Shown: positions 23,905 to 64,000 of the stretch, piece by piece
Layout: each line of letters starts with the position of its first letter
How positions within the stretch are numbered: the first letter of the stretch is position 1
Virus record (IMG/VR): IMGVR_UViG_3300021511_000007
Location: 1,191-65,190 of that record
Length of the DNA stretch: 64,000 bases
Reading direction: 5' to 3' (one strand)
From: a virus
Lineage: Duplodnaviria; Caudoviricetes
Made by a program: the position numbers and the translations under genes
Notes under the pieces: model-generated
The model's database searches: none
Seen by the model: the letters and a program-made list of their open reading frames with translations, nothing else
Told to the model about the DNA's origin: nothing

Positions 23905-24520
23905 CGGCTGAAACGCACTATCCTAAAGTGTTTCAGCATTGTTTCAGGGTAACCCCATGATTACAAAGGGCTGAAACGCTTGAAACGCTTGAAACGCAAA
24001 TTCGAGCCTAGTGCAGGGGCGCGCGCACACCCCCGCGTGTATAGGCTCTTGTTTTTTTGTTTCAAACGTTTCAAACGTTTCACTAACACATAACTCATTG
24101 AAATAGATATATATATAGGGGTGTTTTGCTGAAACAAGCCTGAAACGTTTGAAACAAAACCTTACTTATTGTGTGGTTGAATGCGAATATAACGTCATGT
24201 TTTGTGCAAAACCCATATATTAACCAGAAATATCTACAGATTATCTATGGAATAGCTGCTAATCACCCATACACTAACCATGCGTTACCAGCATATCATG
24301 CCCACAATATCTACCAATTATCTCCATAACGTCACCTGACATTTTGGCAGATACGTTTGAAACGGTAATTCCGGGCGAAAAACGTTTTACACCATGGGTT
24401 TTTTGTTTCAAACGTTTCAGAGTGAAACGTTTGAAACAAAAATTGAGGTGCTGATTTGTTTTTCATGCCCGGTTTTCGTTTCATACGTTTCACTGGCGCA
24501 TCGAATTCGATGCGCCAGTG
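23905..24520. repeat. Putative replication origin: TGAAAC(G)/GTTTCA iterons, AT-rich core and palindromes
   Basis: Many TGAAAC/GTTTCA copies in tandem and inverted orientation; 20-bp perfect inverted repeat at 24400-24442; 30-bp perfect palindrome at 24491-24520; non-coding and just downstream of the helicase gene. Confidence 0.6.
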
Positions 24521-24808: not shown

Positions 24809-26554
24809 CTACCCCTCGCCGGGTAAAAATACCAACGCATCTATCGACACATACCGAGAATACACCCCTGCAAACCGCCTACCGCTATTGCCCTGCTGAG
24901 CCCCGTCTATCCGTCTCAGGATATGCCCCCACCCCACAGACCACGGTGTTTTTTCTAAGATCTTGCGGAGCCCGTCATGCTTGTTCGCGACCAGCACCCG
25001 GACACCATCCGGCTTGATCCCGACTCTTTCGAGAGCATCGATGGCTTGTGCGGGCCACACATCATCGGTTCGCTGGCCATTACACAGCTCGACCAGTTCG
25101 CCAATCGACCGGCGATAAACCTTCTTTTCGCTGGATACGTCGATCTGCTGGGCCATGATGGCCGCGATCAACTTGTCCTCGTCGTTCTCCGCCTGGACAT
25201 CTCTCACATCCCCGAGGAGGCCATCTAGGGCCGCCACCTTCTCGGCCGCCCTCTCGGTCGTCACTCTGCCGGTAGAGCCCAGGAGCCATGCTCCTGCTAA
25301 TAGAGGCCCATACTGATCCCCTATCCGCTGATTTCCGAAGTGCACGCCGACTGCGCGAGCGAACACCCTGGCGTTGTGGCGCAGCACGTCCAGATTAGCG
25401 AACACCCGCGCTCGCAGCCGACCTGCCCAGTCGCCATCCTCCAGGGCCGCCACCAGCGGCTCTATCTGCTCTGTGAAGCGAAGCTTGTCGGTAGCGGTGT
25501 TGCGCTTCAGGCTGAGCACCGTTACGCGGTTCTCGTCAGCGGTCTGCTGGAGCGGTACCCGGATTGCGATCAGGCAGAACATCGACCTAATGGAGTACGA
25601 CTGAGCCATGCCGTCCGCCCCACCCTTTAGGATGTTTCCGCCCACCTCTGCAGACGCCTGACGCATCAGCCCGAGTACGCGCTCCATATTGGCCGCGGTA
25701 CGCCGGTCCTCGCCCTCAGCCTCGTCGAATGTGACCGGCAGCGCATCGTGCTGCAGTGCTTGGCGCAATCCAGCTTCCGTGGTTTCGCCCTTGGCGGCCA
25801 CGACGAACTCCCCCAGGATGCGTTGTATCACATGCTCGCCGACCCATGATTTGCCGCACCCGGACGGACCGGTGAGCATGATGTGCGGACGCCACTCCAT
25901 GGCGCCGCAGACCAGTGCGGAGACTACCCAGCCGGCCAGTAGGGTGCCGTACAGCGGGTTCTCCCAGTTCAACGCGGCGCAGAGCTTCAGCAACTGCCGT
26001 GCTTCCGTGTCACTCGCACGGGCGTCCATGCAGAGCGGCAACGACGGGAGCGCCTCGTACACGTACCGCGACTCGATGTTGTCTACCTCCACCCGCTCGC
26101 CGTCAACCAAGAGGTGGTCGCCCACATGGACTACTGTCCGGTCATCGTCCCACCACGCTCCGCGGCCACGCAGGCGGTCCATGCGAAATACCCCGCAGCC
26201 GAAGCACGCAGCCAAAATTGCATTGACGGCCATGTCGACCGCGGAGCCCTTGAAGCCCACCTCGGATGGGAACTCGCGCTCCCACCACTGGAGCGGCGCA
26301 AGCATAAATAAGTTGGGCTTTTGGGCGAGTTTCGCGGCAGGAAAATGGATGACCTGCCGACCGCGGGTAGTGATGAAAAAGAACCGGTCTCGGTAGTGCC
26401 CAAGGGGGCGAAAATACTTCTCCGCCCCGTCAAGACCCATGTTGGCCTCGGTGTCGTGGTCCTGACGGGGCTTCTTGCCGCGCCTGGAGTTGATGTATGC
26501 GACTTCGGCAAGCTTGGCAACGTCGTCGTTGCCGGGGGGGGGTGAAGTGGGCAT
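24809..26554 (-). CDS. Replicative P-loop NTPase/helicase (primase-helicase family, no clear primase domain; 581 aa)
   Basis: Walker A 'GPSGCGKS', Walker B 'VTFDEAE', 'RGRGAW.D' motif. Confidence 0.8.
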   Translation of the reverse strand: MPTSPPPGNDDVAKLAEVAYINSRRGKKPRQDHDTEANMGLDGAEKYFRPLGHYRDRFFFITTRGRQVIHFPAAKLAQKPNLFMLAPLQWWEREFPSEVGFKGSAVDMAVNAILAACFGCGVFRMDRLRGRGAWWDDDRTVVHVGDHLLVDGERVEVDNIESRYVYEALPSLPLCMDARASDTEARQLLKLCAALNWENPLYGTLLAGWVVSALVCGAMEWRPHIMLTGPSGCGKSWVGEHVIQRILGEFVVAAKGETTEAGLRQALQHDALPVTFDEAEGEDRRTAANMERVLGLMRQASAEVGGNILKGGADGMAQSYSIRSMFCLIAIRVPLQQTADENRVTVLSLKRNTATDKLRFTEQIEPLVAALEDGDWAGRLRARVFANLDVLRHNARVFARAVGVHFGNQRIGDQYGPLLAGAWLLGSTGRVTTERAAEKVAALDGLLGDVRDVQAENDEDKLIAAIMAQQIDVSSEKKVYRRSIGELVELCNGQRTDDVWPAQAIDALERVGIKPDGVRVLVANKHDGLRKILEKTPWSVGWGHILRRIDGAQQGNSGRRFAGVYSRYVSIDALVFLPGEG

Positions 26555-27502: not shown

Positions 27503-27877
27503 CTACCTCGGCACATCCTCAACCCCCCGCACCACGGCAAACACCCCGCCCCGGGTCTCGACATGTGCGCCAAACCGCGCCTGCTCGGCAGTAACGCGGC
27601 CCTTTGGGGCCTTGACCTCCAGCGCGAGGAACACGCCGACGGTCCGACCGACCATTTCGGGGGTGATCACCACGGGCCGTATCCCAATCAGGTCCGACGA
27701 GCCTTTGGCCAGACCGAAGCGCACCGGCCGAGCGTCGATCAGGAGTAGGTCGCGCCCCTGGCGCCGCACGTCGCGCCCCTGCCATGCGACGCCTGTATTA
27801 TTGCGCCACACGGTATCGCCCTGCTCAGAGCATGCCAGCATGACATCTCGCTGGATGTTGGATTCGGTTGCTGCCAT
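27503..27877 (-). CDS. VRR-NUC domain nuclease
   Basis: 'WRNNTG...GL.KGSSDLIG...ALEVK...GR....Q..F' PD-(D/E)xK VRR-NUC signature. Confidence 0.9.
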   Translation of the reverse strand: MAATESNIQRDVMLACSEQGDTVWRNNTGVAWQGRDVRRQGRDLLLIDARPVRFGLAKGSSDLIGIRPVVITPEMVGRTVGVFLALEVKAPKGRVTAEQARFGAHVETRGGVFAVVRGVEDVPR

Positions 27878-27911
27878 TTTTGGCCCCTCTGTGTTTGATT
27901 TTCCATGCTGG

Positions 27912-27967
27912 ATCAGACGGTTACGTGGGTAATCGTTTTATGCGGAGCTGCATAACGCCCGTTAACC
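27912..27967 (+). mobile_element. attI-like site heading cassette array 1
   Basis: 52 bp 51/52 identical to 33066-33117, with identity ending at GTT; layout TGCATAA-N5-GTTAACC. Confidence 0.6.
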
Positions 27968-28189
27968 AGCCCGCGTATTCCATGCGGTCACAGCTTCTTC
28001 TGGTGTAGCAAAATCGTCTGTTTCTGGCTCAACTGCGCATTCTGGATTTACACATTTCGCAGCCTCCCTGTTATCCCCGCAGGCAACGACTAGAGCGCCC
28101 CTGCCGCAGAATGGGCAGGGTAACAAAGCAGTCAACGCGGACGCTTCGCGTCCTGCGTCGTCTGCTGTTTCGGTGTCTTGTTCAGCCAT
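27962..28189 (-). CDS. Lar-like restriction-alleviation Zn-finger protein (inverted cassette gene)
   Basis: 'LLPCPFCG...C...C...EEAVTAWNTR'; start lies inside attC 28118-28239; stop is the TAA of the GTTAACC core. Confidence 0.75.
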   Translation of the reverse strand: MAEQDTETADDAGREASALTALLPCPFCGRGALVVACGDNREAAKCVNPECAVEPETDDFATPEEAVTAWNTRAG

Positions 28190-28239
28190 TGCCGCAACCT
28201 CGAGTTTAGGAGTAAGCGCCGGTTACCGCAACGTTAGGT
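28118..28239 (+). mobile_element. attC-like site
   Basis: GGGTAAC-aaagcagtcaacgcggacgct...agcgccggttaccgcaac-GTTAGGT imperfect inverted repeat. Confidence 0.75.
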
Positions 28240-28300
28240 GCAAAAAAAAATAATTACTCACCGTGTAACGCAAGAATAAAAAACGCTACGGTAAGGTATA

Positions 28301-28900
28301 TTGAATACAATGACACCATTAGAATCAACGGCCGCAGGCCATTTAATAAAGAAGCTGCTTGATCGGGTGCTGGAATATCCAGCCCACATTGCCTTAATGA
28401 TTTTGGCCAGTCTTCTCTCACCCATTCTGGTTTGGCTAAAATCCCAAGGATTAGCAATTTGGATACCGGATACAGTGCCAACATGGCTACTAATATTGTT
28501 ACTTCTACCAACATTTGTTGTACTCCATGCTACTTATAAAAATCTAAAAAAATATACGGGATTTGAACTACTGCACTACACAAACAAAGATATTTCTATG
28601 ATCCCCAAGGGGATTAAAGTTTATCTGACCATTCATCCTAAATTCGATATTTTAGACCCTGAAGATATTGTTTGTGAAAAATGCGACATGCTTTTATCGA
28701 AAAACATCGTACATGAACATCCAAATAATCCTGATGGCTGGTCCTGTTTATTTTGCGAATTAAACATTACCGGCGATGAATACAACAAATCTACAGAGGT
28801 GGCTAGAAACTTAGCTATCGGTTACTTCTATAAAACAAGACATCGAATGCCCGGCATCAAAGATCCGGTGACATTAAAGGACATAGACCCTAATCAATAA
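28301..28900 (+). CDS. AT-rich cassette gene: TM helices plus C-terminal CxxC/CxxC Zn-ribbon
   Basis: Two hydrophobic helices, CEKC and CLFC; conventional integron orientation. Confidence 0.75.
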   Translation: MNTMTPLESTAAGHLIKKLLDRVLEYPAHIALMILASLLSPILVWLKSQGLAIWIPDTVPTWLLILLLLPTFVVLHATYKNLKKYTGFELLHYTNKDISMIPKGIKVYLTIHPKFDILDPEDIVCEKCDMLLSKNIVHEHPNNPDGWSCLFCELNITGDEYNKSTEVARNLAIGYFYKTRHRMPGIKDPVTLKDIDPNQ

Positions 28901-28950
28901 ATACACCCGACATCCTTCGTCGGCGGCTGAAGCAAACGCCAGGTATGTAA

Positions 28951-29499
28951 ATGGATAAATTAAAAGAAGAAGTCATTACTCATCTTTTGGGACTCCTAAA
29001 AAAGTGGTTGCCACATCCGAAATCTTATTTGCTACTGCTAGTAACAGTGCTCCTATCAGCATCCCTTTTTGTGTATCCTGAGAAAGCCCTAGAATTAGTT
29101 CAGAAAAAACCAACACCAGAAATAATATCGGACCTAAAATGGATAATTTCACCGTGGCTCTTATTCCTTGGCGTTTTGGTTGCTCATTTTCAAACTGTCG
29201 CATATCTTCACTCCCAAATCACGAAGGAAAAATTCGATATAAACAATTACGGACTTCATGAATTTCCCACCACAGCGCGGGCATATAAACTTAAACTAAA
29301 GCAAAATAATCAGAACACAGAGCCCACCCAGTATTTGTGTGAATATTGTGCTGCTAATAATTATGAATCTCCCTTGCAACCTGTTGGGTTCAACAGGGGT
29401 GTTTCGTTTTTCCTTAAATGCCACAAATGCGGGCTTATAATTCCAATAAAAACAATGTCTAATGCACTTGAGCAACTAATCAGGTCTAAAATCACCTAA
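28951..29499 (+). CDS. AT-rich cassette gene: TM helices plus C-terminal CxxC/CxxC Zn-ribbon
   Basis: Hydrophobic helices, CEYC and CHKC; stop codon lies within the R'' ACCTAAC, as in classical cassettes. Confidence 0.8.
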   Translation: MDKLKEEVITHLLGLLKKWLPHPKSYLLLLVTVLLSASLFVYPEKALELVQKKPTPEIISDLKWIISPWLLFLGVLVAHFQTVAYLHSQITKEKFDINNYGLHEFPTTARAYKLKLKQNNQNTEPTQYLCEYCAANNYESPLQPVGFNRGVSFFLKCHKCGLIIPIKTMSNALEQLIRSKIT

Positions 29500-29556
29500 C
29501 TAGCGCCTACAGCCGACCGCGCAAACGACGCGCGGCGGCTGAGGCAAGCGTTAGTC
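29494..29556 (+). mobile_element. Canonical short attC site (63 bp)
   Basis: ACCTAAC-tagcgcctacagccgaccgcgc-aaacgac-gcgcggcggctgaggcaagc-GTTAGTC; the left arm carries extra bases relative to the right arm. Confidence 0.9.
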
Positions 29557-29889
29557 GCTCAATGCTTTCCGCGCCTTATGCCCTCTATCCTGTAGGACAA
29601 AATTATCTTCTTCAGCTTGACGGACCGCTCGTATCGTGACCCGATCAAGTGTTCCATCCAATGCCAGCGGGCTGCTCCAATAGTTATCGTCTTCCGCATA
29701 GAAAGAAAGCGCTTCTTGTAGATATGCGATTCGCTCTGTCGCCTCCCGCAATAAGTGCGCAGTTTTTCGGTCTTTTACGTGCGGTGCCATTTGCTGGTAA
29801 TGATGACGCAATCGACTAACAAGCGCGTCAACGCCGACCGCCGGGTCTGCGGCGGCTTCGGGGTTCGTGGTGTCTGTGGCTTCAGTCAT
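29551..29889 (-). CDS. Hypothetical protein (inverted cassette gene, 112 aa)
   Basis: Cassette ends GTTAGTCG (29550) and CGACTAAC (29813) are exact complements; RBS and ATG lie in the attC loop. Confidence 0.75.
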   Translation of the reverse strand: MTEATDTTNPEAAADPAVGVDALVSRLRHHYQQMAPHVKDRKTAHLLREATERIAYLQEALSFYAEDDNYWSSPLALDGTLDRVTIRAVRQAEEDNFVLQDRGHKARKALSD

Positions 29890-29942
29890 TTCTGCATGTC
29901 TCCTGTGCTCAATCCGGCGTCTCGTTACGCTTTACGTTAACG
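29814..29942 (+). mobile_element. attC-like site
   Basis: GACTAAC-aagcgcgtcaacgccgaccgccgg...ccggcgtctcgttacgctttac-GTTAACG. Confidence 0.8.
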
Positions 29943-32894: not shown

Positions 32895-33032
32895 TTAATG
32901 CGAATTGCGCCGGTTGTATCGGAGCCACCAGCGCCCATCCGAGCATGGTCTGGCGATCAGTTCCAGCTTGTGCCGCTTACCCGTGCGATGCATATGGATA
33001 TTGATCGTGATTGTTGCCGGAAGTCTTGCCAT
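32895..33032 (-). CDS. Small hypothetical protein (45 aa)
   Basis: AGAGGGG RBS shared with the VRR-NUC gene; MARLPATITINIHMHRTGKRHKLELIARP... Confidence 0.45.
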   Translation of the reverse strand: MARLPATITINIHMHRTGKRHKLELIARPCSDGRWWLRYNRRNSH

Positions 33033-33065
33033 TTTGGCCCCTCTGGTGTTGTTTTTCAGCAGCGC

Positions 33066-33121
33066 ATCAGACGGTTACGTGGGTAATCGTTTTATGCGGA
33101 GCTGCATAACGCCTGTTGGGC
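33066..33121 (+). mobile_element. attI-like site heading cassette array 2
   Basis: Duplicate of 27912-27963; TGCATAA-N5-GTTGGGC. Confidence 0.6.
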
Positions 33122-33423: not shown

Positions 33424-33780
33424 CGACGTATCCGGCTCCAGGAATCGAACCGGTTTTCCAACACTACGGCTGTATTTCAGTTCCTTGCGCGTAGACTCAC
33501 CGATGTAGCCGCCAACGTTAAGAACGAGCACCTCATCTGCCAGATCTATTTTTCGTAAATGGAGTTCATCTAGTGCCCGTTTCTCGGGGCCGTCTTCTCT
33601 GATCGGGGCGTCTCCCGCATGGATCATTACCCCAACTGACAGTACTATTCGGCCAGCAAGTGACTCCTCTCTGTGCGCTGTTATCCACGCATCCGCGAAC
33701 CGAGTAGAGCCGCACAGACAAACGATCTGCGGCATAACAAGGCTATGAACCCGACCTGTAGACTCCTGTGTTTCGCTCAT
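33418..33780 (-). CDS. Nucleoside-deoxyribosyltransferase-like/DUF4406-type protein (inverted cassette gene)
   Basis: 'IVCLCGSTRF...LDELHLRKIDLADEVLVLNVGGYIGEST..E'; cassette ends GTTATGCC/GGCATAAC are exact complements. Confidence 0.75.
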   Translation of the reverse strand: MSETQESTGRVHSLVMPQIVCLCGSTRFADAWITAHREESLAGRIVLSVGVMIHAGDAPIREDGPEKRALDELHLRKIDLADEVLVLNVGGYIGESTRKELKYSRSVGKPVRFLEPDTSA

Positions 33781-33844
33781 GCTCAGTGTCTCCTGTGTTC
33801 TGGTGTTGTTCGGTGTGGGGCGGGTTATGGCCAGCCCGTTAGAT
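33732..33844 (+). mobile_element. attC-like site
   Basis: GCATAAC-aaggctatgaacccgacc...gggcgggttatggccagccc-GTTAGAT; the loop holds the antisense RBS and ATG. Confidence 0.8.
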
Positions 33845-33848
33845 TTAC

Positions 33849-34135
33849 TCAGCCAATCACCGCTATTGCAGTCTTGTCCTGCGGCAGCATCCCGTAAATC
33901 TCTGCCAAAGTTGGCGCTATGGCTTCGCTCTTCATCTCAGCCAAAAGCCCGTTGCGGTTCCTTCCGAATTCATGGGTATACACAGGGCGTCCCAATGTTT
34001 TTTCCACGGCCTCATGGAACACGCCAAATGGGCAGCACAGTTTGTATTGTACCATTTGAAAACAGCTATGCCGGCATGGTCTTGCTCTTTCCACCATTCA
34101 CTTTCATACAGTTTAATCGCTTGCTCTTTTGTCAC
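33849..34135 (-). pseudogene. Frameshifted phage hypothetical gene in a cassette
   Basis: MTKEQAIKLYESEWWK...IAVF continues as QMVQYKLCCPFGVFHEAVEKTLGRPVYTHEFG in another frame; one base appears missing in the T run near 34060. Confidence 0.6.
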
Positions 34136-34198
34136 CGGAGCGCGTAGACCCCTGCGGGTTTCAGGTAGGGCGCCGCGGCGCCCGGTTAAGCTTGTGCG

Positions 34199-34519
34199 TT
34201 ATGAATACTGAGATTCCGCCCACTTCTCCCAGGAAAATCCGCATTCGCAGTCCGGCCACTCTCTGCCAGAGAAGTCCTGGGCTCCGTAATCGGCTGGTAT
34301 GGTGCAATTAGGACACATCGGCACCTGAATAATGATGCGAGTGCCAGGAGGGAATTCTGGGGCGCTCAGCTTCAGGTCCAGGGTCGCCCCGATATTCTCG
34401 TCACCCTCTTTGGGGTAACTGGTAATCCACGTCGGGCGCATCTGATCGCTGCGTTCGCCGTCATAGCAATCGGGCTCCATGCGGTATGTTTGGCTGTCGT
34501 GCATATGCATGCGATTCAT
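34199..34519 (-). CDS. Zn-finger hypothetical protein (inverted cassette gene, 106 aa)
   Basis: CPNC and CEC motifs; cassette ends GTTATGAAT/ATTCATAAC are complementary over 9 bp. Confidence 0.7.
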   Translation of the reverse strand: MNRMHMHDSQTYRMEPDCYDGERSDQMRPTWITSYPKEGDENIGATLDLKLSAPEFPPGTRIIIQVPMCPNCTIPADYGAQDFSGREWPDCECGFSWEKWAESQYS

Positions 34520-34610
34520 AACAAATCATTCCAGCCGATCCCGCGCGTCGGCATTTGAGTTCAATTCGGGCATTGTGCCAGCGCGGGACCGGCTGATTTC
34601 AACGTTAGAT
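34516..34610 (+). mobile_element. attC-like site
   Basis: TCATAAC-aaatcattccagccgatcccgcgc...gcgcgggaccggctgatttcaac-GTTAGAT. Confidence 0.85.
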
Positions 34611-34766
34611 GCGCAAGCGGAGTAGTTCCACTTTCAAGGCTTCGCGTTCCTCGTTTGTAATCCACACTTCCCACTTTGACCGCCCCATGGCCTCCTGCCG
34701 TGCTTTGAATGTCTTGCCCCTAGCGGTCACCGCCGCTGGGGGTTCTGGCTTGCGGGCCTGGTTCAT
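34605..34766 (-). CDS. Small hypothetical protein (53 aa, inverted cassette gene)
   Basis: Hand translation MNQARKPEPPAAVTARGKTFKARQEAMGRSKWEVWITNEEREALKVELLRLRI; stop falls in the GTTAGAT core. Confidence 0.55.
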   Translation of the reverse strand: MNQARKPEPPAAVTARGKTFKARQEAMGRSKWEVWITNEEREALKVELLRLRI

Positions 34767-35285
34767 GGCAAAAAACAGCAGGGCGCGTAATCAAGTGGGC
34801 GCCCTCCGAGTCTACCGGGGAGAATATTCCATCCGCACCGAGCTGATGCAACCATGTGCGAAACCTCCACTCTGAGCGCATTATGCTGCCGGTCAAATCC
34901 ATTAAAATTCTGTTTCCACCGACATCCAACATCGCACTCCGGGGGAGTGTTGATGTTGGCGGGGTCTGCCGGAGCAGGTCTCATGCCAGCCGAAACCGCT
35001 CAACGCGCCCGCCCTTGGATTGGGCCAACTTGGACGCGAACATATACGCCTCGTCGTAAGAGGAGCAGCCGGTATTTCCGCCACCGAACCAGCTCCCGGC
35101 GCCGGTTAACTCAACATGGTAGATTCCGGATATTATGGTATAGGTTACGTCGAATTTCATATCAGTCTCCGGTTCGGTGTTTTGTTTCAGTAACTATATT
35201 GTCTCATATCGTTTCCGGAAACGCAAGCTCTTTCACTGCAAATTCAAAAGAAAATTCAACTGCTCCCAGGCTCCGCAGCAGGCGC

Positions 35286-35372
35286 ACCTAACCAGGCAAT
35301 AAACCGGAGCGCTTAGACCCCGGCAGCTCCCCCGGGCGCAGCAGCGGCGCCCGGTTGTTGCAAGCGTTGGGC
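35286..35372 (+). mobile_element. attC-like site
   Basis: ACCTAAC-caggcaataaaccggagcgc...gcgcccggttgttgcaagc-GTTGGGC. Confidence 0.8.
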
Positions 35373-35643
35373 GTATCAACCAAGTACCTTACCGGAGTGT
35401 CGCTACCTCGTGAAAGATTTTGGGACATCCCAGTCCCCAAAATCGACTCGCCTACGCGACAACCTTTGGTGCCCCGGCACGCCCTGCGGTCGGCGCTGGA
35501 CTCGACAAACACACGCCGAGCCCAACACCGCCCACAAATGGCTTTACGGCGTGTCGGATGTCCTTGCAGATTTTCTCCGCGGCTTCGGGATACACCCCCC
35601 TTCGCCACTACGAAAATCCGCCCGGACCTACGCCTACCGGGGA

Positions 35644-35877
35644 CTACCAGCCTTCGCTTCGCTCTCCATGGCTGGCAGCGATCGGTGTTCTGTCTCTTTC
35701 GGACGCCGTTATTGCACCGTCGATTTTCCGCATTGATGGCACCTTGCCAGTGTTTAGCCAGCGCAGGTAAATAGCGTTAATCGGCTTCGGTGGGGTACCG
35801 AGGGAGTACGTCCATATGCTCACGTAGTCTGCTATTCGTCTGCACCGTTCGTGTTTTTTGAAAGAACTCATAACCAT
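35644..35877 (-). CDS. Hypothetical protein (inverted cassette gene)
   Basis: Starts at or near the GTTATG of the R'' of attC 35868. Confidence 0.45.
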   Translation of the reverse strand: MVMSSFKKHERCRRIADYVSIWTYSLGTPPKPINAIYLRWLNTGKVPSMRKIDGAITASERDRTPIAASHGERSEGW

Positions 35878-35954
35878 TCATTCCTACCGAGCCGTGAGAC
35901 TCCGGCGGCTGATCTCCGGTCCGCTGTGCGGCCGGCAGAATTCAACCGTTAGAT
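35868..35954 (+). mobile_element. attC-like site
   Basis: TCATAAC-cattcattcctaccgagccg...cggccggcagaattcaacc-GTTAGAT. Confidence 0.75.
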
Positions 35955-36158: not shown

Positions 36159-36179
36159 TTGCTCTCCCCCAATCAGAAT

Positions 36180-36482
36180 CTAACAACTGCATAAAGCCAG
36201 ACCGCCCCGACCGGCGCGGCTCCCCCAACCCTCTTTCCCAGCCATCTCCTCTACCCGAGCCTTTCTCTTGGCTTCGAGAACAATCCCTGCTGCCACCTCG
36301 CTCCATCCCGGAATGTTGCGTCTCGCTATTTTCAAGACATATCCTCCGGGCCGCTTTGTTGACAGCGCGTTTCTAGCAAGCACCACTGCGCACGTAGGAA
36401 CTGCGTCGCTGTTAACGGAAAGGCGCCGATGGTGTTGGGCTATCGCGATTACCAGCGCTGTTTTCATCGTGTTTTCGCTCAT
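36180..36482 (-). CDS. Hypothetical protein
   Basis: MSENTMKTALV... start within the tracked ORF. Confidence 0.5.
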   Translation of the reverse strand: MSENTMKTALVIAIAQHHRRLSVNSDAVPTCAVVLARNALSTKRPGGYVLKIARRNIPGWSEVAAGIVLEAKRKARVEEMAGKEGWGSRAGRGGLALCSC

Positions 36483-43657: not shown

Positions 43658-43742
43658 GGTTAACGTAAAGCATAAACCGGCGCACGATGAAGCCAGAGCT
43701 AATCACCACAGTATGACGCTTGGGTTTATGTGCTGGTTAGAT
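43658..43742 (-). mobile_element. attC-like site (top strand on minus)
   Basis: Minus strand: ATCTAAC-cagcacataaacccaagcg...gcgccggtttatgctttac-GTTAACC. Confidence 0.75.
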
Positions 43743-43815
43743 GCCGTGATTTCTAGGGGGATACCTCAATGTCATATTTTCCGAAAATGGTGCCATTGGA
43801 AATGTCTGGCTTGAT

Positions 43816-44004
43816 ATGTCGGGAGAGACGGTCAGCGACGTAGATCTCTGTTATGAAATAGAGATGGGCGAAATAGATAGCTACGCCTCTTCAACAATAC
43901 CACTCCGCGCATTAATTGAAGAGGCGGCGGAAGGTGAAGATGAAGATCGGCGCAAACAACTTGCTAACGAATTGCGCCAACTGGCGGATTTGATAGGCAC
44001 ATAA
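43816..44004 (+). CDS. Hypothetical protein (probable cassette gene)
   Basis: Acidic 62-aa ORF following the attC; start uncertain. Confidence 0.45.
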   Translation: MSGETVSDVDLCYEIEMGEIDSYASSTIPLRALIEEAAEGEDEDRRKQLANELRQLADLIGT

Positions 44005-44015
44005 ACAGCCAACCC

Positions 44016-45512
44016 ATGATCACCCTCCGCGACTATCAGCAGCAGTCTGCCGACGAGATCCGCATCGCGTATCGCCATGGGTATCGGGCACCTCTGTTGG
44101 TCGCCCCAACAGGCAGCGGGAAAACCGTTCTGTTCAGCTACATCGCCCACCATGCAGCCGCCCGCAGCAACAACGTTCTGATCCTGGTCCACCGCCAGGA
44201 ACTGCTGACGCAGACAAGCCGCACCCTGGGTGACATGGGAGTCGACCACGGCCTCGTCGCACGCGGCATGACATTCACCAGGGCAAAAGTCCAGGTGGCC
44301 AGCGTCCAGACCCTGGTCCGCCGGATGCATCGGATGCAGTGGCAGCCGAGCATGATCGTCGTTGACGAGGCGCACCACGCAACAGGCAAGACCACCTGGG
44401 GCAAGGTGTTGCAGCACTATTCAGGCGCGTTCGTGCTAGGTGTCACGGCCACTCCGGAACGCCTCGACGGGCAGGGCCTCGGCGTTGATGCCGGCGGCTT
44501 CTTCGACGCGCTCGTGCTGGGGCCTTCGGTCTCCGCCCTGGTGGGCGAGGGGTATTTGTCGCAACCGGTGGTGTATGCTCCGGCGACGGCAGATCTATCT
44601 GCGGTGCATACCCGCATGGGTGACTACGTGAAGTCAGAGTTGTCAGCGGCCATGGACCGGCCCACGATCACCGGAGACGCTTGCCAGCACTACCGGCGCC
44701 ATTGTCACAACGAACCGGCCATAGCGTTCTGCTGCTCCGTTGCCCACGCCGAAAATGTGGCAGAGCAGTTTCGCGCGGCGGGCTACCAAGCCGCCAGCAT
44801 CGACGGCAAGCTGGACGGGCAGGTCCGGCGGCAACGTATCGCGGATCTCGCCGACGGCCAACTGCACGTCCTCACGTCGTGCGAGATAATCAGCGAGGGA
44901 GTAGATATCCCTGTTGTGTCGGCTGCTATTCTTCTGCGGCCCACACAATCCCTTGGGCTCTCGCTCCAACAGATGGGCCGGGCATTGCGTCCGCACCCCG
45001 GCAAGGAGCGGGCGCTGATCCTCGATCATGCCGGGAATTGTTTGCGCCACGGCCTCCCCGACGACGACCGCGAGTGGTCGCTCGCCGGTGGCAAGCGCAG
45101 CGGCCGGCGCACCACAGATGAGCCCAATATCCCCATCCGTCAGTGCGAGCGCTGTTACCACGTTCATCGCCCGGCGCCGGCCTGCCCGAAGTGCGGATTT
45201 GTCTACGAAGTGCAATCCCGGCAAATCGACGAGGTGGAAGGCGAACTCCAGCAGGTCGACCCCAAAGCGTTGCGGCGTAGTCGCGCCTACGAGGAGCGAC
45301 AGGCGCGTACATACAAGGAGTTGGTCGAGCTCGGCAAGACGCGGGAATACAATAATCCGCACGGGTGGGCGAACAGGCGGATGGTCGGCCGGGCGAAGAG
45401 CATGCGGGATTTGATCGACTTGGCTCATGAGCTTGGGCGCAAGAACCCTGAGAAGTGGGCTGGGTTTTTGTGGCAGAGCCATAGGGCCAATAGACACAAG
45501 AGAGCGGCATGA
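44016..45512 (+). CDS. SF2 DEAD/DEAH-box helicase with Zn finger (498 aa)
   Basis: 'LRDYQ', 'APTGSGKT', 'DEAHH', 'TATPER', 'EGVDIP', 'QQMGRALR', CxxC..CxxC. Confidence 0.95.
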   Translation: MITLRDYQQQSADEIRIAYRHGYRAPLLVAPTGSGKTVLFSYIAHHAAARSNNVLILVHRQELLTQTSRTLGDMGVDHGLVARGMTFTRAKVQVASVQTLVRRMHRMQWQPSMIVVDEAHHATGKTTWGKVLQHYSGAFVLGVTATPERLDGQGLGVDAGGFFDALVLGPSVSALVGEGYLSQPVVYAPATADLSAVHTRMGDYVKSELSAAMDRPTITGDACQHYRRHCHNEPAIAFCCSVAHAENVAEQFRAAGYQAASIDGKLDGQVRRQRIADLADGQLHVLTSCEIISEGVDIPVVSAAILLRPTQSLGLSLQQMGRALRPHPGKERALILDHAGNCLRHGLPDDDREWSLAGGKRSGRRTTDEPNIPIRQCERCYHVHRPAPACPKCGFVYEVQSRQIDEVEGELQQVDPKALRRSRAYEERQARTYKELVELGKTREYNNPHGWANRRMVGRAKSMRDLIDLAHELGRKNPEKWAGFLWQSHRANRHKRAA

Positions 45513-45709
45513 TGACTTTTAATTATGTTAGTTTTGGTGCGGATGAAGACGCCGATTATGCTTATGCGCTGTACCTGGCAAAGCAGGCTGAGCTGTTTTC
45601 ACGCGCAGGGGCAACTGTCGGGATCGTCGGGGTGGTGAAATCGACCATAGGGATAATGCTTCACTATTCGGATATACCTATTCGCACTGATGACTCCGTT
45701 ATCTATTGA
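45509..45709 (+). CDS. Hypothetical protein, cassette copy A
   Basis: Paralog of 46192..46443; 190-bp cassette GTTAGTTT (45527) to AAACTAAC (45716). Confidence 0.65.
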   Translation: MMTFNYVSFGADEDADYAYALYLAKQAELFSRAGATVGIVGVVKSTIGIMLHYSDIPIRTDDSVIY

Positions 45710-45799
45710 AACTAACGGCTGAATCAGCGGGCCGCGCACCGGAGCCAGCGCGACAGCCCCGCCAGAATTTACCGGCTCCGCTGTATTTTATTGTTGGGC
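45710..45799 (-). mobile_element. attC-like site (top strand on minus)
   Basis: Minus strand: GCCCAAC-aataaaatacagcggagcc...ggcccgctgattcagcc-GTTAGTT; extra bases on the left arm. Confidence 0.8.
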
Positions 45800-45822
45800 C
45801 GCGGCCCACACGGGAGAAGAAA

Positions 45823-46134
45823 ATGAGCACCTATACACCTATCGCTGAGCCCGAAAATTACGGTCCGTTTGATGAGCGTGACATCAAGATACACGAAAAA
45901 AAACACGGCACTGGATGGACCTACCTGCGGGTGGGGCGGGTGAGCCTGGAGCGGTTTCCCGCACTCCTCGATACCTGGGGAAATGGGGGCTTCGTGGATG
46001 TCACGAAACCATATCCGGTGCTATCCCATTGGGGGTGGGGGGAAGCATATAGGGCCGTTCTGCCCCCGAGCAAAGCGAAGATGATTAGTGGATTTGGCGA
46101 CGGCGACAGCTTGGTCGCGTACAAAACGCATTGA
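45823..46134 (+). CDS. Hypothetical protein (inverted cassette gene, 103 aa)
   Basis: GGGAGA RBS; MSTYTPIAEP...; cassette ends GTTGGGC/GCCCAAC are exact complements. Confidence 0.7.
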   Translation: MSTYTPIAEPENYGPFDERDIKIHEKKHGTGWTYLRVGRVSLERFPALLDTWGNGGFVDVTKPYPVLSHWGWGEAYRAVLPPSKAKMISGFGDGDSLVAYKTH

Positions 46135-46138
46135 GTCC

Positions 46139-46267
46139 GCCCAACGCCTGCCTAAGCAGCCCGCGGGTCGACACAAAGGAGCCGACAGAACATGACGAAC
46201 CAACAGCAACACGATAGCCAGCAGCCCGCCGCGGACCCCGCGGGTCGGCTTGAGGCTGATGTTAGTT
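46139..46267 (-). mobile_element. attC-like site (top strand on minus)
   Basis: Minus strand: AACTAAC-atcagcctcaagccgacccgcgg...cccgcgggctgcttaggcaggc-GTTGGGC; the loop holds AAGGAG and the ATG at 46192. Confidence 0.85.
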
Positions 46268-46443
46268 TTGGTGCGGATGAGGACGCCGATTATGCTTATG
46301 CTCTGTACCTTGCAAGACAGGCAGAGCTTTTTTCGCGGTCTGGGGCCATTGTAGGAATCGTCGGGATGGTGATGTCGTGCATCGGGGTAACTCATCATTA
46401 TTCGGATGTGCCGATCAGCATCAAAAACCCGGTTATTTACTGA
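46192..46443 (+). CDS. Hypothetical protein, cassette copy B
   Basis: First 23 aa are encoded by the attC arm; 190-bp cassette 46261-46450. Confidence 0.7.
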   Translation: MTNQQQHDSQQPAADPAGRLEADVSFGADEDADYAYALYLARQAELFSRSGAIVGIVGMVMSCIGVTHHYSDVPISIKNPVIY

Positions 46444-46531
46444 AACTAACGAACAGGCATAAGCGGGCGCCTGTACGAGGTGGAACTAAGCGGCGGAGTC
46501 TACGCGCTCCGCCTTAATGCAGTTGTTAGAT
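46444..46531 (-). mobile_element. attC-like site (top strand on minus)
   Basis: Minus strand: ATCTAAC-aactgcattaaggcggagcgcg...gcgcccgcttatgcctgttc-GTTAGTT. Confidence 0.8.
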
Positions 46532-46547
46532 TCTGGTTGGAGGGCGA

Positions 46548-46748
46548 ATGGGACAAGCAAAGCGGCGTGGATCTTTTGAACAGCGGCAAAGGCTGGCTGT
46601 TGAGGGGCTGCGAAAAGAACGGGAGGCGGCCGGCTTGGCGCGAATTGAGGCTGAAGCCAGGCGGGTGGATTCCGAGGAACCGAAAAGACGTGCGGCAAGC
46701 CGGGTGCTGGCAATAGCCCTTGGGGTTGCTCTCGCCTCATCTCGATAG
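46548..46748 (+). CDS. Small basic hypothetical protein (inverted cassette gene)
   Basis: GGAGG RBS; 'MGQAKRRGSFEQR' N-terminus. Confidence 0.7.
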   Translation: MGQAKRRGSFEQRQRLAVEGLRKEREAAGLARIEAEARRVDSEEPKRRAASRVLAIALGVALASSR

Positions 46749-46759
46749 CTGCTGAATCT

Positions 46760-47391
46760 CTCACGGTAGGAACGCCCGTTACCGGGCGCCCCCCGCACAG
46801 ACCCGGACGTGCGGTTTTTCCGCATCCGGTTCCTCGGTTGTACTCGCGTTCGCGACGGGCATTTTATTACTTTAGTTAGACTACAAAGGCCGCATGAGTG
46901 CGTTTGGGCTCAACCACTTTGGGCCAGGCGACGTTCAACCTCTTCAGCGCTTCTTTGAATTGCCCCCAATTGAAACTGCTCTTCTTCCCGCCTCTGCGGT
47001 TGAGCCATTTAAAGGCACTCTTGATCGTGAAGCCGAAGAAGCTGCCAAGGGACTTTTCGTTGCTGCGCACGCCGTAGTAGTTGTAGTGCCCGACCAGTTT
47101 TCGGTTCAAAGCTTGGATGAACTTGCGCCCCGGTTGGTGGCGCTTGGCTTTGACCCACTCTTTCATTCGTCTTTTGGCTCCTTGCAGCTTTTTGCGTGCC
47201 GTCCTTTTCATCACCCGTAGCACTCCACACCGATCGCGATTCCAGTATAGTTCGAATCCAAGAAATGCGAAACGATGGCGCAGTCCGGGGTGAAAGCGGC
47301 TGAAGCGTTGGATGCGGGTCTTTTCAGGGGCCACTTCCAGACCGAATTCCTTCAGTCTTTTGGGCATGGCTTGGTAGAACCGCACGCCGTC
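46760..47391 (-). mobile_element. 5'-truncated group II intron (IEP C-terminus plus domains V-VI)
   Basis: DV/DVI on minus at 46760-46835: GAGGAACCGGATGCGGAAAAACCGCACGTCCGGGTCTGTGCGGGGGGCGCCCGGTAACGGGCGTTCCTACCGTGAG; IEP fragment upstream. Confidence 0.92.
46876..47385 (-). pseudogene. Group II intron reverse transcriptase/maturase C-terminal fragment
   Basis: RT6-7 'GLEVAPEKT...F.FLGF' and domain X 'LNRKL.GHYNYYG...WLNRRG'; no YADD or N-terminal RT domains. Confidence 0.9.
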
Positions 47392-47439
47392 CAGTAAATA
47401 TTAGACGGCGTGCGGTCTAGTAAGTATTGCTTTTGAGGT

Positions 47440-50400: not shown

Positions 50401-53400
50401 ACGCAACGCGCCATATCTATCGTCGGCCGACATAATCGCGTCAGATTCTTTGTCGGAAATAGTTCCTTCCGGCAAGCTGGAGATTATGCTCCAATCTCCC
50501 CATGTCCCCAGGTCCGAGAGTCGGATCGGGTTTTCCATCCGGAGATATGCCGCAGTTGGCGGGATGGTTTTCGGCTGCTTGACAACGAACGCTTTTGCAT
50601 CGCGCTCGCTGGGAAACGGACCCAGCCCCTCTCCTTCCGTCGGGCCGGTATCGGCGAAGACAAAAAAATCGCCCTCGTCTTCTTCGATCTCATACTCGAT
50701 CCGGTCCATGCCTCTTGCGCGGTCCTCCGCTGCCTGCGCAGTCCCGAAATGAGCGCCCTCACCGCTCAATCTCATGTCAAACTCGGTAAACTCAGAATCC
50801 GACCAATGGTACTGAGGGACTGGCCGCCCCTCGGCATCGACCACGGCGGAACCCCCAAACCACCCCCAAAAGTTCCGCACCCCCTCCTCCGTCGGATGGA
50901 TCGGCTTGCCCTCGGAGTTGGTTGTGGGGCGAGCAACGCCGGCCACTTCGATGGTGGCGGGGAGGGGCTTGGCGCGGCTGTAGCGGATGTCGGGGCTGGT
51001 GGGAGAGAAGGCTCCGGTGTTGCCGATGGCGGATTTGATTTGTGTTGGGTCAAAAACCACGTAAATATCTTCAACCTCATCTATTTCATTGTCGATGGTG
51101 TTTTTTATTATGGCCCCATCTTTTCCGCTTTCCATCGCAACATCTATTAATTTGCTATAGGTTTCACCTCTAAATGACTTCCCATCCTGATCTTTGATTA
51201 CTGGGTTGTCCGTTTTTAGGTATACAGGGTATACAACATGGCCCGGAGATGTTTTTATTATTTCGGCTATTTTCGGTTTATATGTTGCAGCTTCCGCCAA
51301 AGCGTCGTTGTATCCTTTTGACCCCATTTTGTGCGCTAACCTACCAGACAGGGCGTTATGGACTTTTTGCCATAAATCTAGCAACTCAGCATTCCCTGTC
51401 CCTTGGTCGGCATATTCGGCATAGTCCGATGCTGTCATCTGCGAACTAGAAAAGAAGAACCCTTTCTTTGCGCTCTCCGCATCAGTAACCCATCCGCCAA
51501 ATTCACGATTAAATGAACCGATATCAGCCGCTGTCCCATGATAAACCACCAAAGGCCGCCCCTCGGCATCGACCACGCGACTGTTTTTGAACCACCCCCA
51601 AAAATTCCGCACCCCCTCCTCTGTCGGATGGATCGGCTTGCCCTCGGAGTTGGTTGTGGGGCGAGCAACGCCGGCCACTTCGATGGTGGCGGGGAGGGGC
51701 TTGGCGCGGCTGTAGCGGATGTCTGGGGCGGGCTTGCGCGAAAACAGCGGCATCCCCTCCATGGCGGACTTCTGCATTTTGTCCGTTACAGGGAAGGTCC
51801 ACACGTCTTGCCCGCCAACCTGCGATACCCCAACTTTCGACCCAAACTTCTTAATGAATTTCCCGACCGCTTTCGGCAGGATCTTGTCATAGAACCCCGC
51901 CATCCCCGTATCGCTGATGGTGATGTCGTCGCCTTCCAGTACTCCGCTTTGATTCGGGTCGCTGATGATCTTGTCGCCCATGGCTTTGCCGATGGCATCG
52001 GATAGCGCGCTCTCGGCCTCGGTGGTGTCGATTACCTGCCGGCCGCCTTTCGTGCCGACCAGGCGAATGCCGTCCTTTTCTTTCGTCCATGCAACCCTGT
52101 CCACGCCTTTGCGCAGTGCGCTTCTGTACCGCTCGGTTTGCACTTCGCCCGGAGTCCATGCCACTTGCTCGAAGTTGTTCTCGGATGCCCAGCGGATTGC
52201 GCGCTTCATGCCGAGGAGCGCCCATTGGTTGGTTTGCTTGAAGGGTATAGACGGAACCCCGGTTGGCTTTATCTGGCGGATGAAGTGTCCCGGTCGATTG
52301 TGCCTCTTAGCAGCGTCTTGCGCCTCGTCTAGGGTTGCAAATACTCCAATTACATCCCCATTTCGACCCTCAAGCTCCCATCGCGGCGTAGAGTCATATC
52401 CCTTCTTCCTCCCCTCCTGCGCCCAATCGCTCTGAACCTCCTCCACGAACATCGTTTTCTTGCCGCCGATCTCCCGCTCGTTGAAGCGAAGATGAACGAC
52501 TACATCTTCCTCGTCAAAATGGGGACCCTTGTAGGGCTCTCCTTCGAGGTATGGAAGCATCAGCAGCAGTTCCCGGTAGTTCTCGCGCTCGCCGGGCATT
52601 TGGTACTCGGCGTATTTGGCGCTGTCGTCGCTGTCAGGATCACCGCCCATCTCCACCTCAGCATCTTCTCGATTGCTGTTTTCGGCATCGATGTAGGTCT
52701 GCTGGGTGTTATCCCACGCTTCTTCCCTGAAGTCGTTAAGCGCCTCATTCTCGAAGAGCGCTTCCCAGCCCAGTTCTTTTGCATCGTCTTGGAATTGCCA
52801 TTCCGCTCCGTTCTTGCCGGCCTCGTCAAGAACGCCTTCCTCGTCGCGGAACTGGTCTCTGTAATAAGCCTTATCTGCCCCAAGGCGCGCCCATATTCTG
52901 TGGCTTGGATCATTCCATGCTCCCTCTACCTCTTCGCTTACAGTATCCGCCATCCACTCCGACCAATCACTGTCCTCTGCGTTGAATTCCGACTCGAATG
53001 TTTCACGAGCAGCCTCGTCCACCGAGCTGTCATACTCCCCCACTGCATTCGATAGCGTCACCTCCTCGACATCCACCTCCTGCGACTTGAGGTAATCCAG
53101 CAGTTGCCCCTTGGTGACCGGCCCTTCCTGCTCGCGCAACCAACCCTGCACCCCGGACCAGTCTATTTCCGCCTGTTTCACGCCTTTTTGTGGGAGGTTT
53201 CGGATCATGCCGAGCCATTGGCCGCGCGCCGCCTTTGGCTGATTGAGCTTTTGAATCTGCCGGGTCAGTTCAGAGTAGAACTTGGGGAAGGTCCGCGCCT
53301 CGCTCCGGCCTGATCTGCCCCTTCTGGCCGCACCGGCCCGCCCGATAGATTGCTTGACCAACGCCACTGCCAGCTCGTCGGTGATCCTGAAGTTCGCTCC

Positions 53401-62101: not shown

Positions 62102-62181
62102 GACCTGCCTCATAAACACAAAGGGACCGGGGCGGCCCCGCTTCATATGAGTTTAGCAAAAACAAGACGAAAATGCTCTTG

Positions 62182-62301
62182 GGGCGTACTGGGCATACTG
62201 GGCATACTGGGCGTACTGGGCATACTGGGCATACTGGGCGTACTGGGCATACTGGGCATACTGGGCGTACTGGGCGTACTGGGCGTACTGGGCATACTGG
62301 G
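62182..62301. repeat. 9-bp tandem repeat (GGGC[A/G]TACT) x13
   Basis: Thirteen units plus GGG; variant order G,A,A,G,A,A,G,A,A,G,G,G,A. Confidence 0.95.
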
Positions 62302-62322
62302 TGGCGTGCAGTCTAGTCGCTG

Positions 62323-62526
62323 TTAGCTTGCTTTATAGTAATAGCATCTACCCTGGGTCGGCATTGGTATATGTGGATGGCACCCATCGTGCCTTAACGT
62401 AAGTCTCCAGTGCTGGCAGAAATGAGGCTCTTTTTTATCCGACTGGTCTTTCTCTTGAGGCGTCAGATATATGCAGCCATCACAAAAGTCGCCTTTCACC
62501 CCTGTATTCGTTGCCGCCGTTGACAT
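62323..62526 (-). CDS. Small Cys-rich protein (inverted cassette gene)
   Basis: Bounded by GTTAGCTT (62322) and AATCTAAC (62545); stop lies in the core site. Confidence 0.65.
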   Translation of the reverse strand: MSTAATNTGVKGDFCDGCIYLTPQEKDQSDKKEPHFCQHWRLTLRHDGCHPHIPMPTQGRCYYYKAS

Positions 62527-62545
62527 ATCGCCACCCCCAACCAGA

Positions 62546-62930
62546 ATCTAACATCAGCTTCAACGCAGACCGCGTATTGCGGACCGGCCCCTCGTTCTCT
62601 CTCTCCACCCTGTCTGGGTGCCGGTCTTTCCCGGCGGTCTTAGGCTTTCGCCATCCGACATGTATCGGAGTCCACCTTTAATCCAAGGCCGGTAATTCAT
62701 CAGTCTCAAGTGCTTCGTTGCTGTTTACAACGATTCGGCCGCTTCAAACGGCTAGGTTGCCCATTTGCCCATCCTCAGTTGCTACTCGGTCGTTCTGGCG
62801 AGCCGAGGTACGCCGTATCAAACACATAACCAATCATTCCAAGGCGACCGCCCAATCCTCGGCGGTCATCCTCATATCACCCCCATCCAGAATCCAACAA
62901 CTGTATTAAACCGGCTCGCCCCGAATGTGG
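62546..62930 (+). mobile_element. Two degenerate attC-like sites
   Basis: ATCTAAC-atcagcttcaacgcagaccgcg at 62546 and ACATAAC-caatcattccaaggcgaccgcc at 62824; right arms decayed. Confidence 0.5.
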
Positions 62931-63917: not shown

Positions 63918-64000
63918 TCGCCGGGTACGGGTCCGGGTCCGGGTACGGGGACGGGTACGGGGACGGGTACGGGTCCGGGTCCGGGTCCGGGTACGGGTCC
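63914..64000 (+). CDS. Gly-Tyr/Gly-Ser/Gly-Asp repeat protein, partial
   Basis: ATGA-coupled; MIAGYGSGSGYGDGYGDGYGSG... encoded by 6-bp repeats; runs off the window. Confidence 0.6.
   Translation, partial: MIAGYGSGSGYGDGYGDGYGSGSGSGYGS

Follow-up and report, generated by a model that had tools for sequence, protein, structure and literature searches.

A dead, 5′-truncated group II intron at the edge of an attC-like array in a tailed-phage genome, probably left by an attC-homing lineage of class E or F

The third attC-like array of a tailed-phage genome carries a dead remnant of a group II intron, and the best explanation for it is probably that an IIE/IIF-like intron which homes into the R′ core of attC sites had inserted in this array. 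The stretch analysed (hereafter the window) comprises 64 kb of a 65,190-b IMG/VR virus record with an estimated completeness of 84%. Genes for a terminase large subunit, a head-closure protein, a primase and a methyltransferase in the record mark it as a real tailed phage. The 5′-truncated intron occupies about 46759/60–47410 on the minus strand, begins 29 nt past the stop codon of a 4299-codon polyvalent-protein gene on the same strand, and keeps domains V–VI and the C-terminus of its RT/maturase (hereafter IEP). The features are listed in Table 1.

Table 1. Positions of the intron remnant, its surroundings and the attC-like sites in the window, and of tandem intron copies in bacterial loci
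Feature	Position	Strand	Support
Surviving 3′ half of the interrupted core, (A)GATT then C	46755–46759	−	Sequence and family 5′ exon rule
Group II intron domains V and VI	46759–46834	−	RF00029 match 46760–46834, fold, alignment to relatives
Domain IV 3′ stub, between IEP stop codon and domain V	46835–46875	−	Unbroken 83% nucleotide alignment with relative L052
IEP (RT/maturase), C-terminal part	46876–47410	−	TIGR04416, weak GIIM, 90% identity to P0001
Perfect 13-bp hairpin at the truncation point	47380–47417		Fold −19.2 kcal/mol, z −6.7
Polyvalent-protein gene, 4299 codons	47440–60339	−	Pfam LPD38, ART-PolyVal (2 stretches), LPD23
ORF of 66 codons with an RBS of its own, forming the content of cassette one, antisense to intron and attC-top strand	46548–46748	+	ORF list
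attC-like site	29494–29556	+	R2 33.7 bits, E 7.5e-5
attC-like site, nearest intact one to the remnant	46444–46531	−	R2 32.8 bits, E 1.1e-4
attC-like site	35286–35372	+	R2 31.1 bits, E 2.6e-4
attC-like site	35868–35954	+	R2 27.2 bits, E 0.0017
attC-like site	34516–34610	+	R2 24.0 bits, E 0.0077
attC-like site	33732–33844	+	R2 21.6 bits, E 0.025
Five weaker R2 hits	29814; 43658; 28118; 46139; 45710	+; −; +; −; −	
Tandem intron copies in bacterial relatives	L164 (G014:C2:20900–21500); L052:1090–1110; L068:5015–5035		Junction sequence

Domains V–VI match RF00029 over the full model (positions 1–77) with 36.5 bits (E 3.7e-5). This score lies below the gathering score of 40 bits, so a default Rfam run at gathering thresholds returned no match in the window; full-length relatives reach 41.1–41.5 bits. 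Both hairpins appear in the fold, domain V with a 5-nt loop and a 2-nt bulge and domain VI long and with a bulged A, and the fold z-score of −4.7 was equalled by 0 of 200 shuffles. The 3′ end of the remnant aligns to the CCTACCG[C/T]GAGA ends of relatives, with the 3′ splice site at 46760 or 46759. The open frame of the IEP comprises its last 169 codons (46876–47385), and homology continues in register beyond this frame, through a stop codon, to ~47410, which corresponds to IEP residue ~270 of 441. The 169-codon ORF matches positions 228–352 of the 353 of TIGR04416 (E 1.9e-19), well short of the cut-off for full-length proteins, as a fragment would be, and its GIIM match is weak (21.9 bits versus a cut-off of 23). 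It shares 90% identity with the C-terminus of intron proteins of 407–441 aa, P0001 being the best match, and the 441-aa full-length homologues lack an endonuclease domain. The closest locus, L052, shares 83% nucleotide identity from 46759 to ~47410.

The YADD motif, RT domains 0–5 and an endonuclease domain are all absent from the remnant, and ribozyme domains D1–D4 gave no Rfam match in the window, whereas the relatives do match RF02005. In total, ~270 codons and ~575 nt of 5′ ribozyme are missing, i.e. ~1.4 kb of a 2.0-kb element, which agrees with a preliminary description of this DNA in which the 5′ part of the intron was considered lost. The element is recognizable as group II by its domains V–VI and by an IEP lying in domain IV, while domains I–III and the RT active site are gone; it is dead and can neither splice nor move.

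The target of the intron family was defined on 42 independent insertion sites of bacterial relatives. One copy, in Desulfosarcina, lies inside a protein-coding gene with its exons in frame (L039:2300–4450), and an empty orthologue, 78% identical, is present in another genome (L165:1830–1990). The occupied site reads CTCAGC GTTA, the intron, then TGTATGTG / TGTATGTGGAC (frame L-S-V-M-Y-V(-D)), and the empty site reads CTCACC GCCA TGTATGTC / TGTATGTCGAT (frame L-T-A-M-Y-V(-D)). Both are in frame only with GTTA as exon, and the 5′ exon therefore includes GTTA. Three head-to-tail tandem junctions lack GTTA (GAGA/TCGCG in L052 and L164, GAGA/GCGCG in L068; the slash marks the junction), as expected if the second copy re-uses the intact 5′ exon of the occupied site. 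Domain I contains a conserved loop, GAGGGUUU-UAACG-UGCACCGAA, with complementarity to CGUUA, and UAACG or a covarying form occurs in 34 of 44 copies: the L011 exon TGTTA is paired with TAACA, and G variants of the exon retain UAACG, for which a wobble pair is allowed. Across the 42 unique sites the exon carries C at −5 (40 sites), G at −4 (41), T at −3 (39), T at −2 (all 42) and A (35) or G (6) at −1. The 3′ exon of the relatives begins with T (14), G (8) or A (2) at 24 sites, and its next base is mostly G. On the evidence of the empty orthologue, the tandem copies and the covariation of EBS1, two other readings were rejected, namely (i) GUUAU/GTTAT (before CGCGCC) as the intron 5′ end, with exons ending in C, and (ii) GTTAGATT as a promoter word only.

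Applied to the phage, this rule leaves the cut ambiguous by one base, because the base that precedes the intron, A at 35 of the 42 sites, is the same letter as the invariant last intron base. The cut is GTT/A (3′ end at 46760) or GTTA/ (46759), and the restored site is GTTAGATTC in both cases. The presence of A at that core position in all 21 uninterrupted attC sites used below mildly favours GTT/A; the 3′ end first proposed, 46760, fits this form, and 46759 is equally allowed by the exon rule. The 5′ half of the phage core, GTT(A), is no longer in the sequence, and by the family rule the site would have read GTT(A)/GATTC, a 9/9 match to the phage's own GTTAGATTC, which has three exact copies in the window. 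The shorter word GTTAGATT occurs five times versus 0.84 expected, a count reached by 0 of 100 shuffles. The preliminary description had placed a GTTAGATT copy at 46525, then AATCT and directly after it the minus-strand intron 3′ end. These features lie where it had put them, the GTTAGATT copy at 46525–46532 on the plus strand, and the proposed insertion in a GTT/AGATT core is borne out by the relatives, whose 42 sites follow a C-G-T-T-R exon rule under which the restored site is a GTTAGATT copy.

Since only four to five flank bases survive, and a 4-nt match arises once in 256 at a fixed place and was here sought after the fact, GATT(C) could in principle resemble the motif by coincidence, with an original 5′ exon that did not end in GTT(A). 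We regard this as very improbable given the near-invariance of G at −4 and T at −2 among the family sites, an EBS1 loop that is kept across the family, and the complete match of the restored site to a word that the phage itself repeats.

We then considered the class and the affinities of the intron. Its domain V loop reads GCGG-AAAAA-CCGC, with GAAAA in the relatives, and a 5-nt loop instead of a GNRA tetraloop is described as an idiosyncrasy of IIE and IIF introns in the accessible part of PMC3753933. Two measurements on relatives also fit IIE/IIF: (i) the intron of L003, a copy in Imhoffiella purpurea, is 2008 nt long with an ORF of 1323 nt, leaving a ribozyme of ~685 nt within the 450–700 nt of these classes; and (ii) the 441-aa IEP ends 38 residues past its maturase match, without an endonuclease domain. 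The relatives match RF02005, for which the Rfam 15 paper gives no intron class. The best plasmid tblastn match of the IEP is 44% identical, and PDB RTs of IIA, IIB and IIC all score 131–145 bits, with no discrimination among them. The class can thus be narrowed to E or F. Class E, as first suggested, is one of the two, and the 5-nt domain V loop fits both.

A tree of the 169-residue region places the fragment with L052 and L006 in a supported gammaproteobacterial clade of 16 rows (96/87), in which copies at attC junctions make up 7 of the 15 other rows and several of the others come without upstream sequence. A Halorhodospira protein (P0084) is among the IEP homologues at 68% identity. The preliminary description had proposed such a phylogeny and an inspection of the flanks of full-length relatives as checks on an integron connection, and both point to attC: the fragment groups with the attC-junction relatives, and the flanks reveal attC R′ cores as insertion sites at part of the loci, as follows.

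Many relatives sit in sense in co-directional cassette arrays among small ORFs. In L007, L005, L081 and L077, for example, the spacers are 60–130 nt long and have the form CATAAC, stem, C GTTA TGC, i.e. that of a canonical attC. The reverse complement of the 4-nt core lies 44–150 nt upstream at 30 of 40 sites, versus 436 of 1415 GTTA sites taken from these loci as controls (Fisher p 1.9e-8). In a plain count, full GTTRRRY cores are present at 6 of 23 sites, and exact inverse-core partners are only weakly enriched (7 of 23 versus ~3.3 expected); more was learned from the 4-nt core comparison and from the covariance model described next. The 5′ exons also fold better than control windows (mean −15.1 versus −9.4 kcal/mol, p 7e-8), which is a soft test because the controls include coding DNA.

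We trained a covariance model (R2) on 21 uninterrupted attC sites from the bacterial loci of the relatives, with 12 pairs set by hand from column statistics and two bulges on the 5′ side, so that its E-values are rough; a model with an automatic structure (R1) contained no base pairs and was left unused. In 41 loci of relatives, R2 gave 43 hits at E ≤0.01, every one of them on the intron's strand and 18 of them training sites. Among the 25 non-training hits, 12 end exactly at the intron 5′ junction, 2 nt past the first intron base, which places the intron within the R′ of a detectable attC. Such a junction at the R′ end of an R2 attC (E 0.01) is found in only 12 of the 41 loci, and the copy in the Desulfosarcina coding gene indicates that the lineage also colonises non-attC CGTTA sites. 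Taken together, this non-attC landing and the limited number of loci that pass R2 imply that IBS1 alone may be enough. The fragment belongs to the subclade of the attC-junction copies, consistent with the earlier suggestion that an integron-targeting element had recognised the phage site.

A search of the window with R2, filters off, detected the attC-like sites of Table 1 in three clusters at 28118–29942 (plus strand), 33732–35954 (plus) and 43658–46531 (minus). The window outside the clusters (~55 kb) contains a single 10-bit hit, and 99 kb of other phage DNA gave a best hit of 12.9 bits; these other phages are of lower GC, so that a better control is the remainder of the window itself. The model separates the strands clearly, e.g. 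the site at 35868–35954 drops to 11.9 bits on the opposite strand. Minimum-energy folds of the phage spacers left the two cores unpaired, with z-scores from +0.6 to −2.4. In the third cluster the top strand is the minus strand, i.e. that of the intron, and the remnant lies at the upstream end, an arrangement that recurs in the relatives. Two positional claims of the preliminary description are thereby upheld, the location of the remnant at the head of the third array and that of the intron on the attC-top strand. The R″ end of the nearest intact site (ATCTAAC, minus strand) is the GTTAGATT copy mentioned above. No match to a tyrosine recombinase or IntI (PF00589 and TIGR02249) was found in the 65,190-b, 84% complete record, and in the absence of IntI the phage arrays are at most CALIN-like.

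An 86-nt repeat heads the first two arrays (27878–27963 and 33032–33117, 86% identical). Its copies are alike up to CATAACGCC(C/T)GTT and diverge directly after GTT, as in an attI-cassette junction, and it looks like the attI-like motif of the preliminary description. Directly beside the first copy begins a divergent VRR-NUC nuclease gene (27503–27877, minus strand), and directly beside the second begins a short minus-strand ORF. Next to the remnant we found no trace of this head repeat. Of the R′ of the interrupted target only (A)GATTC survives, and ordinary phage attC R′ cores also read CGTTAGAT, so that an attI-like element and an attC R′ would look the same as the lost 5′ exon. On this point the preliminary description, with its attI-type core, is not supported.

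The cassette picture needs amending in one respect: relative to the attC-top strand, the real ORFs are antisense. Two paralogous small genes (45509–45709 and 46192–46443) differ at codon position 3 of the plus-strand frame in 24 of 40 places. They share FGADEDADYAYALYLA and 79% nucleotide identity over 193 nt, form separate cassettes of the third array and are under purifying selection on the plus strand. Several start codons lie in or beside cores, as GTTATG or as GTTAGAT followed by an RBS and ATG. A conserved 40-nt head (TTATGCAGTT GTTAGATTCTGGTTGGGGG, then ATG) has three copies, at 46501–46543 (plus), 36166–36205 (minus) and 62534–62576 (minus). Read on the other strand it is the R″/L″ side of an attC, and forward it resembles an extended −10 element (TGnTAGATT) with an RBS. 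R2 detected no full attC at the copies at 36178 and 62546, and a sigma-70 scan did not flag the motif.

These promoter-like features bear on a second reading of the insertion, in which plain IBS1-driven retrotransposition can hit any single-stranded CGTTA, the landing in a GTTAGATT copy was due to chance and the motif may be mainly a TGnTAGATT extended −10 promoter element. The family does occur at non-attC sites such as the L039 coding gene, three to four GTTAGAT copies lie 23–32 nt upstream of an RBS-bearing start codon, and the window offers 35 CGTTAK sites. However, only ~3 of these 35 are motif copies, so that a chance landing in one would happen about once in ten. Moreover, the closest relatives are the attC-bound ones, and the intron lies on the model-defined top strand, as do all of the relatives' hits. 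We therefore consider this reading quite unlikely and prefer homing into an attC-like R′ core.

A further question is where the insertion took place. The intron might instead have entered a bacterial integron array, from which the phage later acquired the array or a cassette together with the broken intron, by cassette capture or illegitimate recombination. The detection of the phage arrays by a model trained on bacterial attC sites is in line with such an origin, as are the position of the remnant at an array edge, beside an abrupt junction with an odd hairpin, and published phages with chromosomal integron fragments (accessible part of PMC9892861). Against it, the 3′ exon is continuous with the phage's repeated head motif and with an ORF that has a phage-type RBS, and the phage flank was found in none of the bacterial loci, which have only the intron in common with it and with one another. 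An origin outside the phage is on balance unlikely, and the intron more probably inserted within the phage.

Contigs from three vent-metagenome studies cover the region. One (X3) bridges the truncation point without differences, another (X1, possibly from the sample of origin) extends 34 nt across the 3′ junction, and a third (X2) extends only 13 nt past the 3′ junction, too little to count. Contigs of four runs contain no joint across the remnant, and contigs cannot show absence. A search of viral contigs with the C-terminus of the polyvalent protein returned no uninterrupted allele; a helicase query found six loci at 39–47% identity, uninformative in this respect; and the 39 loci picked up with a 17-nt motif all belong to unrelated AT-rich phages that have the word in coding sequence. 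Among metagenome contigs there was one locus (L146, 50% identity), in which the genes are ordered differently. In GenBank phages, blastn matched 74 nt of domains V–VI and nothing more. None of these searches turned up an uninterrupted allele.

At the truncation point, the hairpin of Table 1 can be compared in register with L052: counted from the alignment, the two agree at 18 of the 28 bases that precede the CGG TTC codons, which indicates an origin in the RT gene for the 3′ arm, the loop and the inner 7 nt of the 5′ arm. The outer 6 nt of that arm are foreign, and the stem was made perfect by three substitutions and these six bases. The hairpin looks like the product of a template switch or fold-back at the break, and transcription of the polyvalent-protein gene may now terminate at it.

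The following sequence of events would account for the remnant. The EBS1 loop (U)AACG would have paired with the conserved C-G-T-T-(A) of the core, and the intron would have reverse spliced into single-stranded DNA of the attC-top (minus) strand of the third attC-like array. Entry would have been at GTT(A)/GATTC, at the upstream boundary of the array, behind the polyvalent-protein gene and in sense with it. The missing ~1.4 kb may have been removed by a later deletion or a template switch, or may never have been copied owing to incomplete reverse transcription at integration. The loss would have taken ribozyme domains I–III, RT domains 0–5 and the whole 5′ exon element.

We also compared the lineage with known systems. 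According to the accessible parts of PMC7923331 and PMC4424553, group IIC-attC introns (S.ma.I2, Ge.s.I1 and relatives) have several traits in common with it: they are endonuclease-less, home into attC, use a short IBS1 adjacent to a DNA stem-loop with no convincing IBS2, and occur also in arrays without an integrase. Their insertion is into the bottom strand and thus antisense with respect to the cassettes, at TTGT/T within the R″ complement (PMC7923331). The present lineage, by contrast, goes into the top strand and in sense, at CGTT(A)/ within R′; its relatives share attC targeting with IIC-attC introns but depart from their mode of insertion in strand, orientation and target word. Its RNA is not class-C-like either (RF02005, ~690 nt without the ORF, 5-nt domain V loop). 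The part of PMC4424553 available describes homing into attC or terminators for class C only. With class C introns that follow intrinsic terminators (B.h.I1 type) the lineage shares insertion just 3′ of a DNA hairpin and a short exon pairing, but its IBS1 is a fixed 4–5 nt word (CGTTA) that is part of the attC core rather than of a U-tract flank. Endonuclease-less classes have been reviewed (PMC3552965, accessible part).

Close parallels are H.ha.F1 and H.ha.F2, two 5′-truncated fragments of class E that lie in a CALIN of Halorhodospira halochloris (Sonbol and Siam 2021, PMC7923331). Going by what the accessible text of that paper describes, they resemble the remnant in being endonuclease-less and non-IIC, in keeping only domains V–VI and part of the IEP, and in lying on the cassette top strand of an attC array without an integrase, with attC-like hairpins upstream. 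Because both fragments are truncated, the target cannot be defined there. They differ in that theirs is a bacterial CALIN and the remnant lies in a phage.

For phages, Qi et al. (2023, PMC9892861) reported 17 CALINs among 10,705 genomes and the recombination of virulent-phage attC sites by IntI1. Within the accessible text, their clusters share with the arrays here the lack of an integrase and the location in a phage genome, and the terms 'intron' and 'group II' occur 0 times; unlike those clusters, the arrays here have ORFs antisense to the attC-top strand and an 86-nt common head on two arrays. In open-access papers and preprints we found neither an attC target rule for a non-IIC lineage nor a report of phage attC arrays that contain a group II intron.

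Homing into attC had so far been described for a single lineage, IIC-attC (antisense, into the bottom strand), plus two truncated class E fragments with an unreadable target. The present analysis adds a defined target rule for another lineage of different structure, which uses EBS1 (U)AACG and inserts in sense into the top strand at CGTT(A)/ of R′. The remnant serves as a natural probe, in that an otherwise attC-bound element in a repeated phage core supports reading the three small-gene clusters as integron-type cassette arrays, which have been reported in phages only in 2023 (PMC9892861, accessible part). More broadly, it is possible, and we propose it only tentatively, that a non-IIC (IIE/IIF-like) lineage with an EBS1 tuned to the attC R′ CGTTA homes in sense on the top strand, and that phage attC arrays are genuine single-stranded substrates in vivo within the bacterial integron exchange network. 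If so, a top-strand, sense intron could be spliced from cassette transcripts, and phage arrays would take part in the network despite lacking an integrase of their own and carrying antisense genes. As the remnant is inert, it probably affects the phage little in any direct way, and at most through the hairpin behind the polyvalent-protein gene.

Several other repeats were observed in the window. The polyvalent-protein gene contains an internal duplication (50858–50995 and 51590–51727, 98% identical, ~732 nt spacing). A 9-nt tandem repeat, GGGC[A/G]TACT, with ~14–17 copies at 62155–62328, lies just upstream of a 606-codon gene on the minus strand, and a CGGGTN repeat of 6/12 nt occupies the window end (63922–63998). 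Iteron-like direct and inverted copies of TGAAACGTTTGAAAC(AAAA) at 23972–24492, beside the primase gene (24809–26554, minus strand), may constitute a replication origin.
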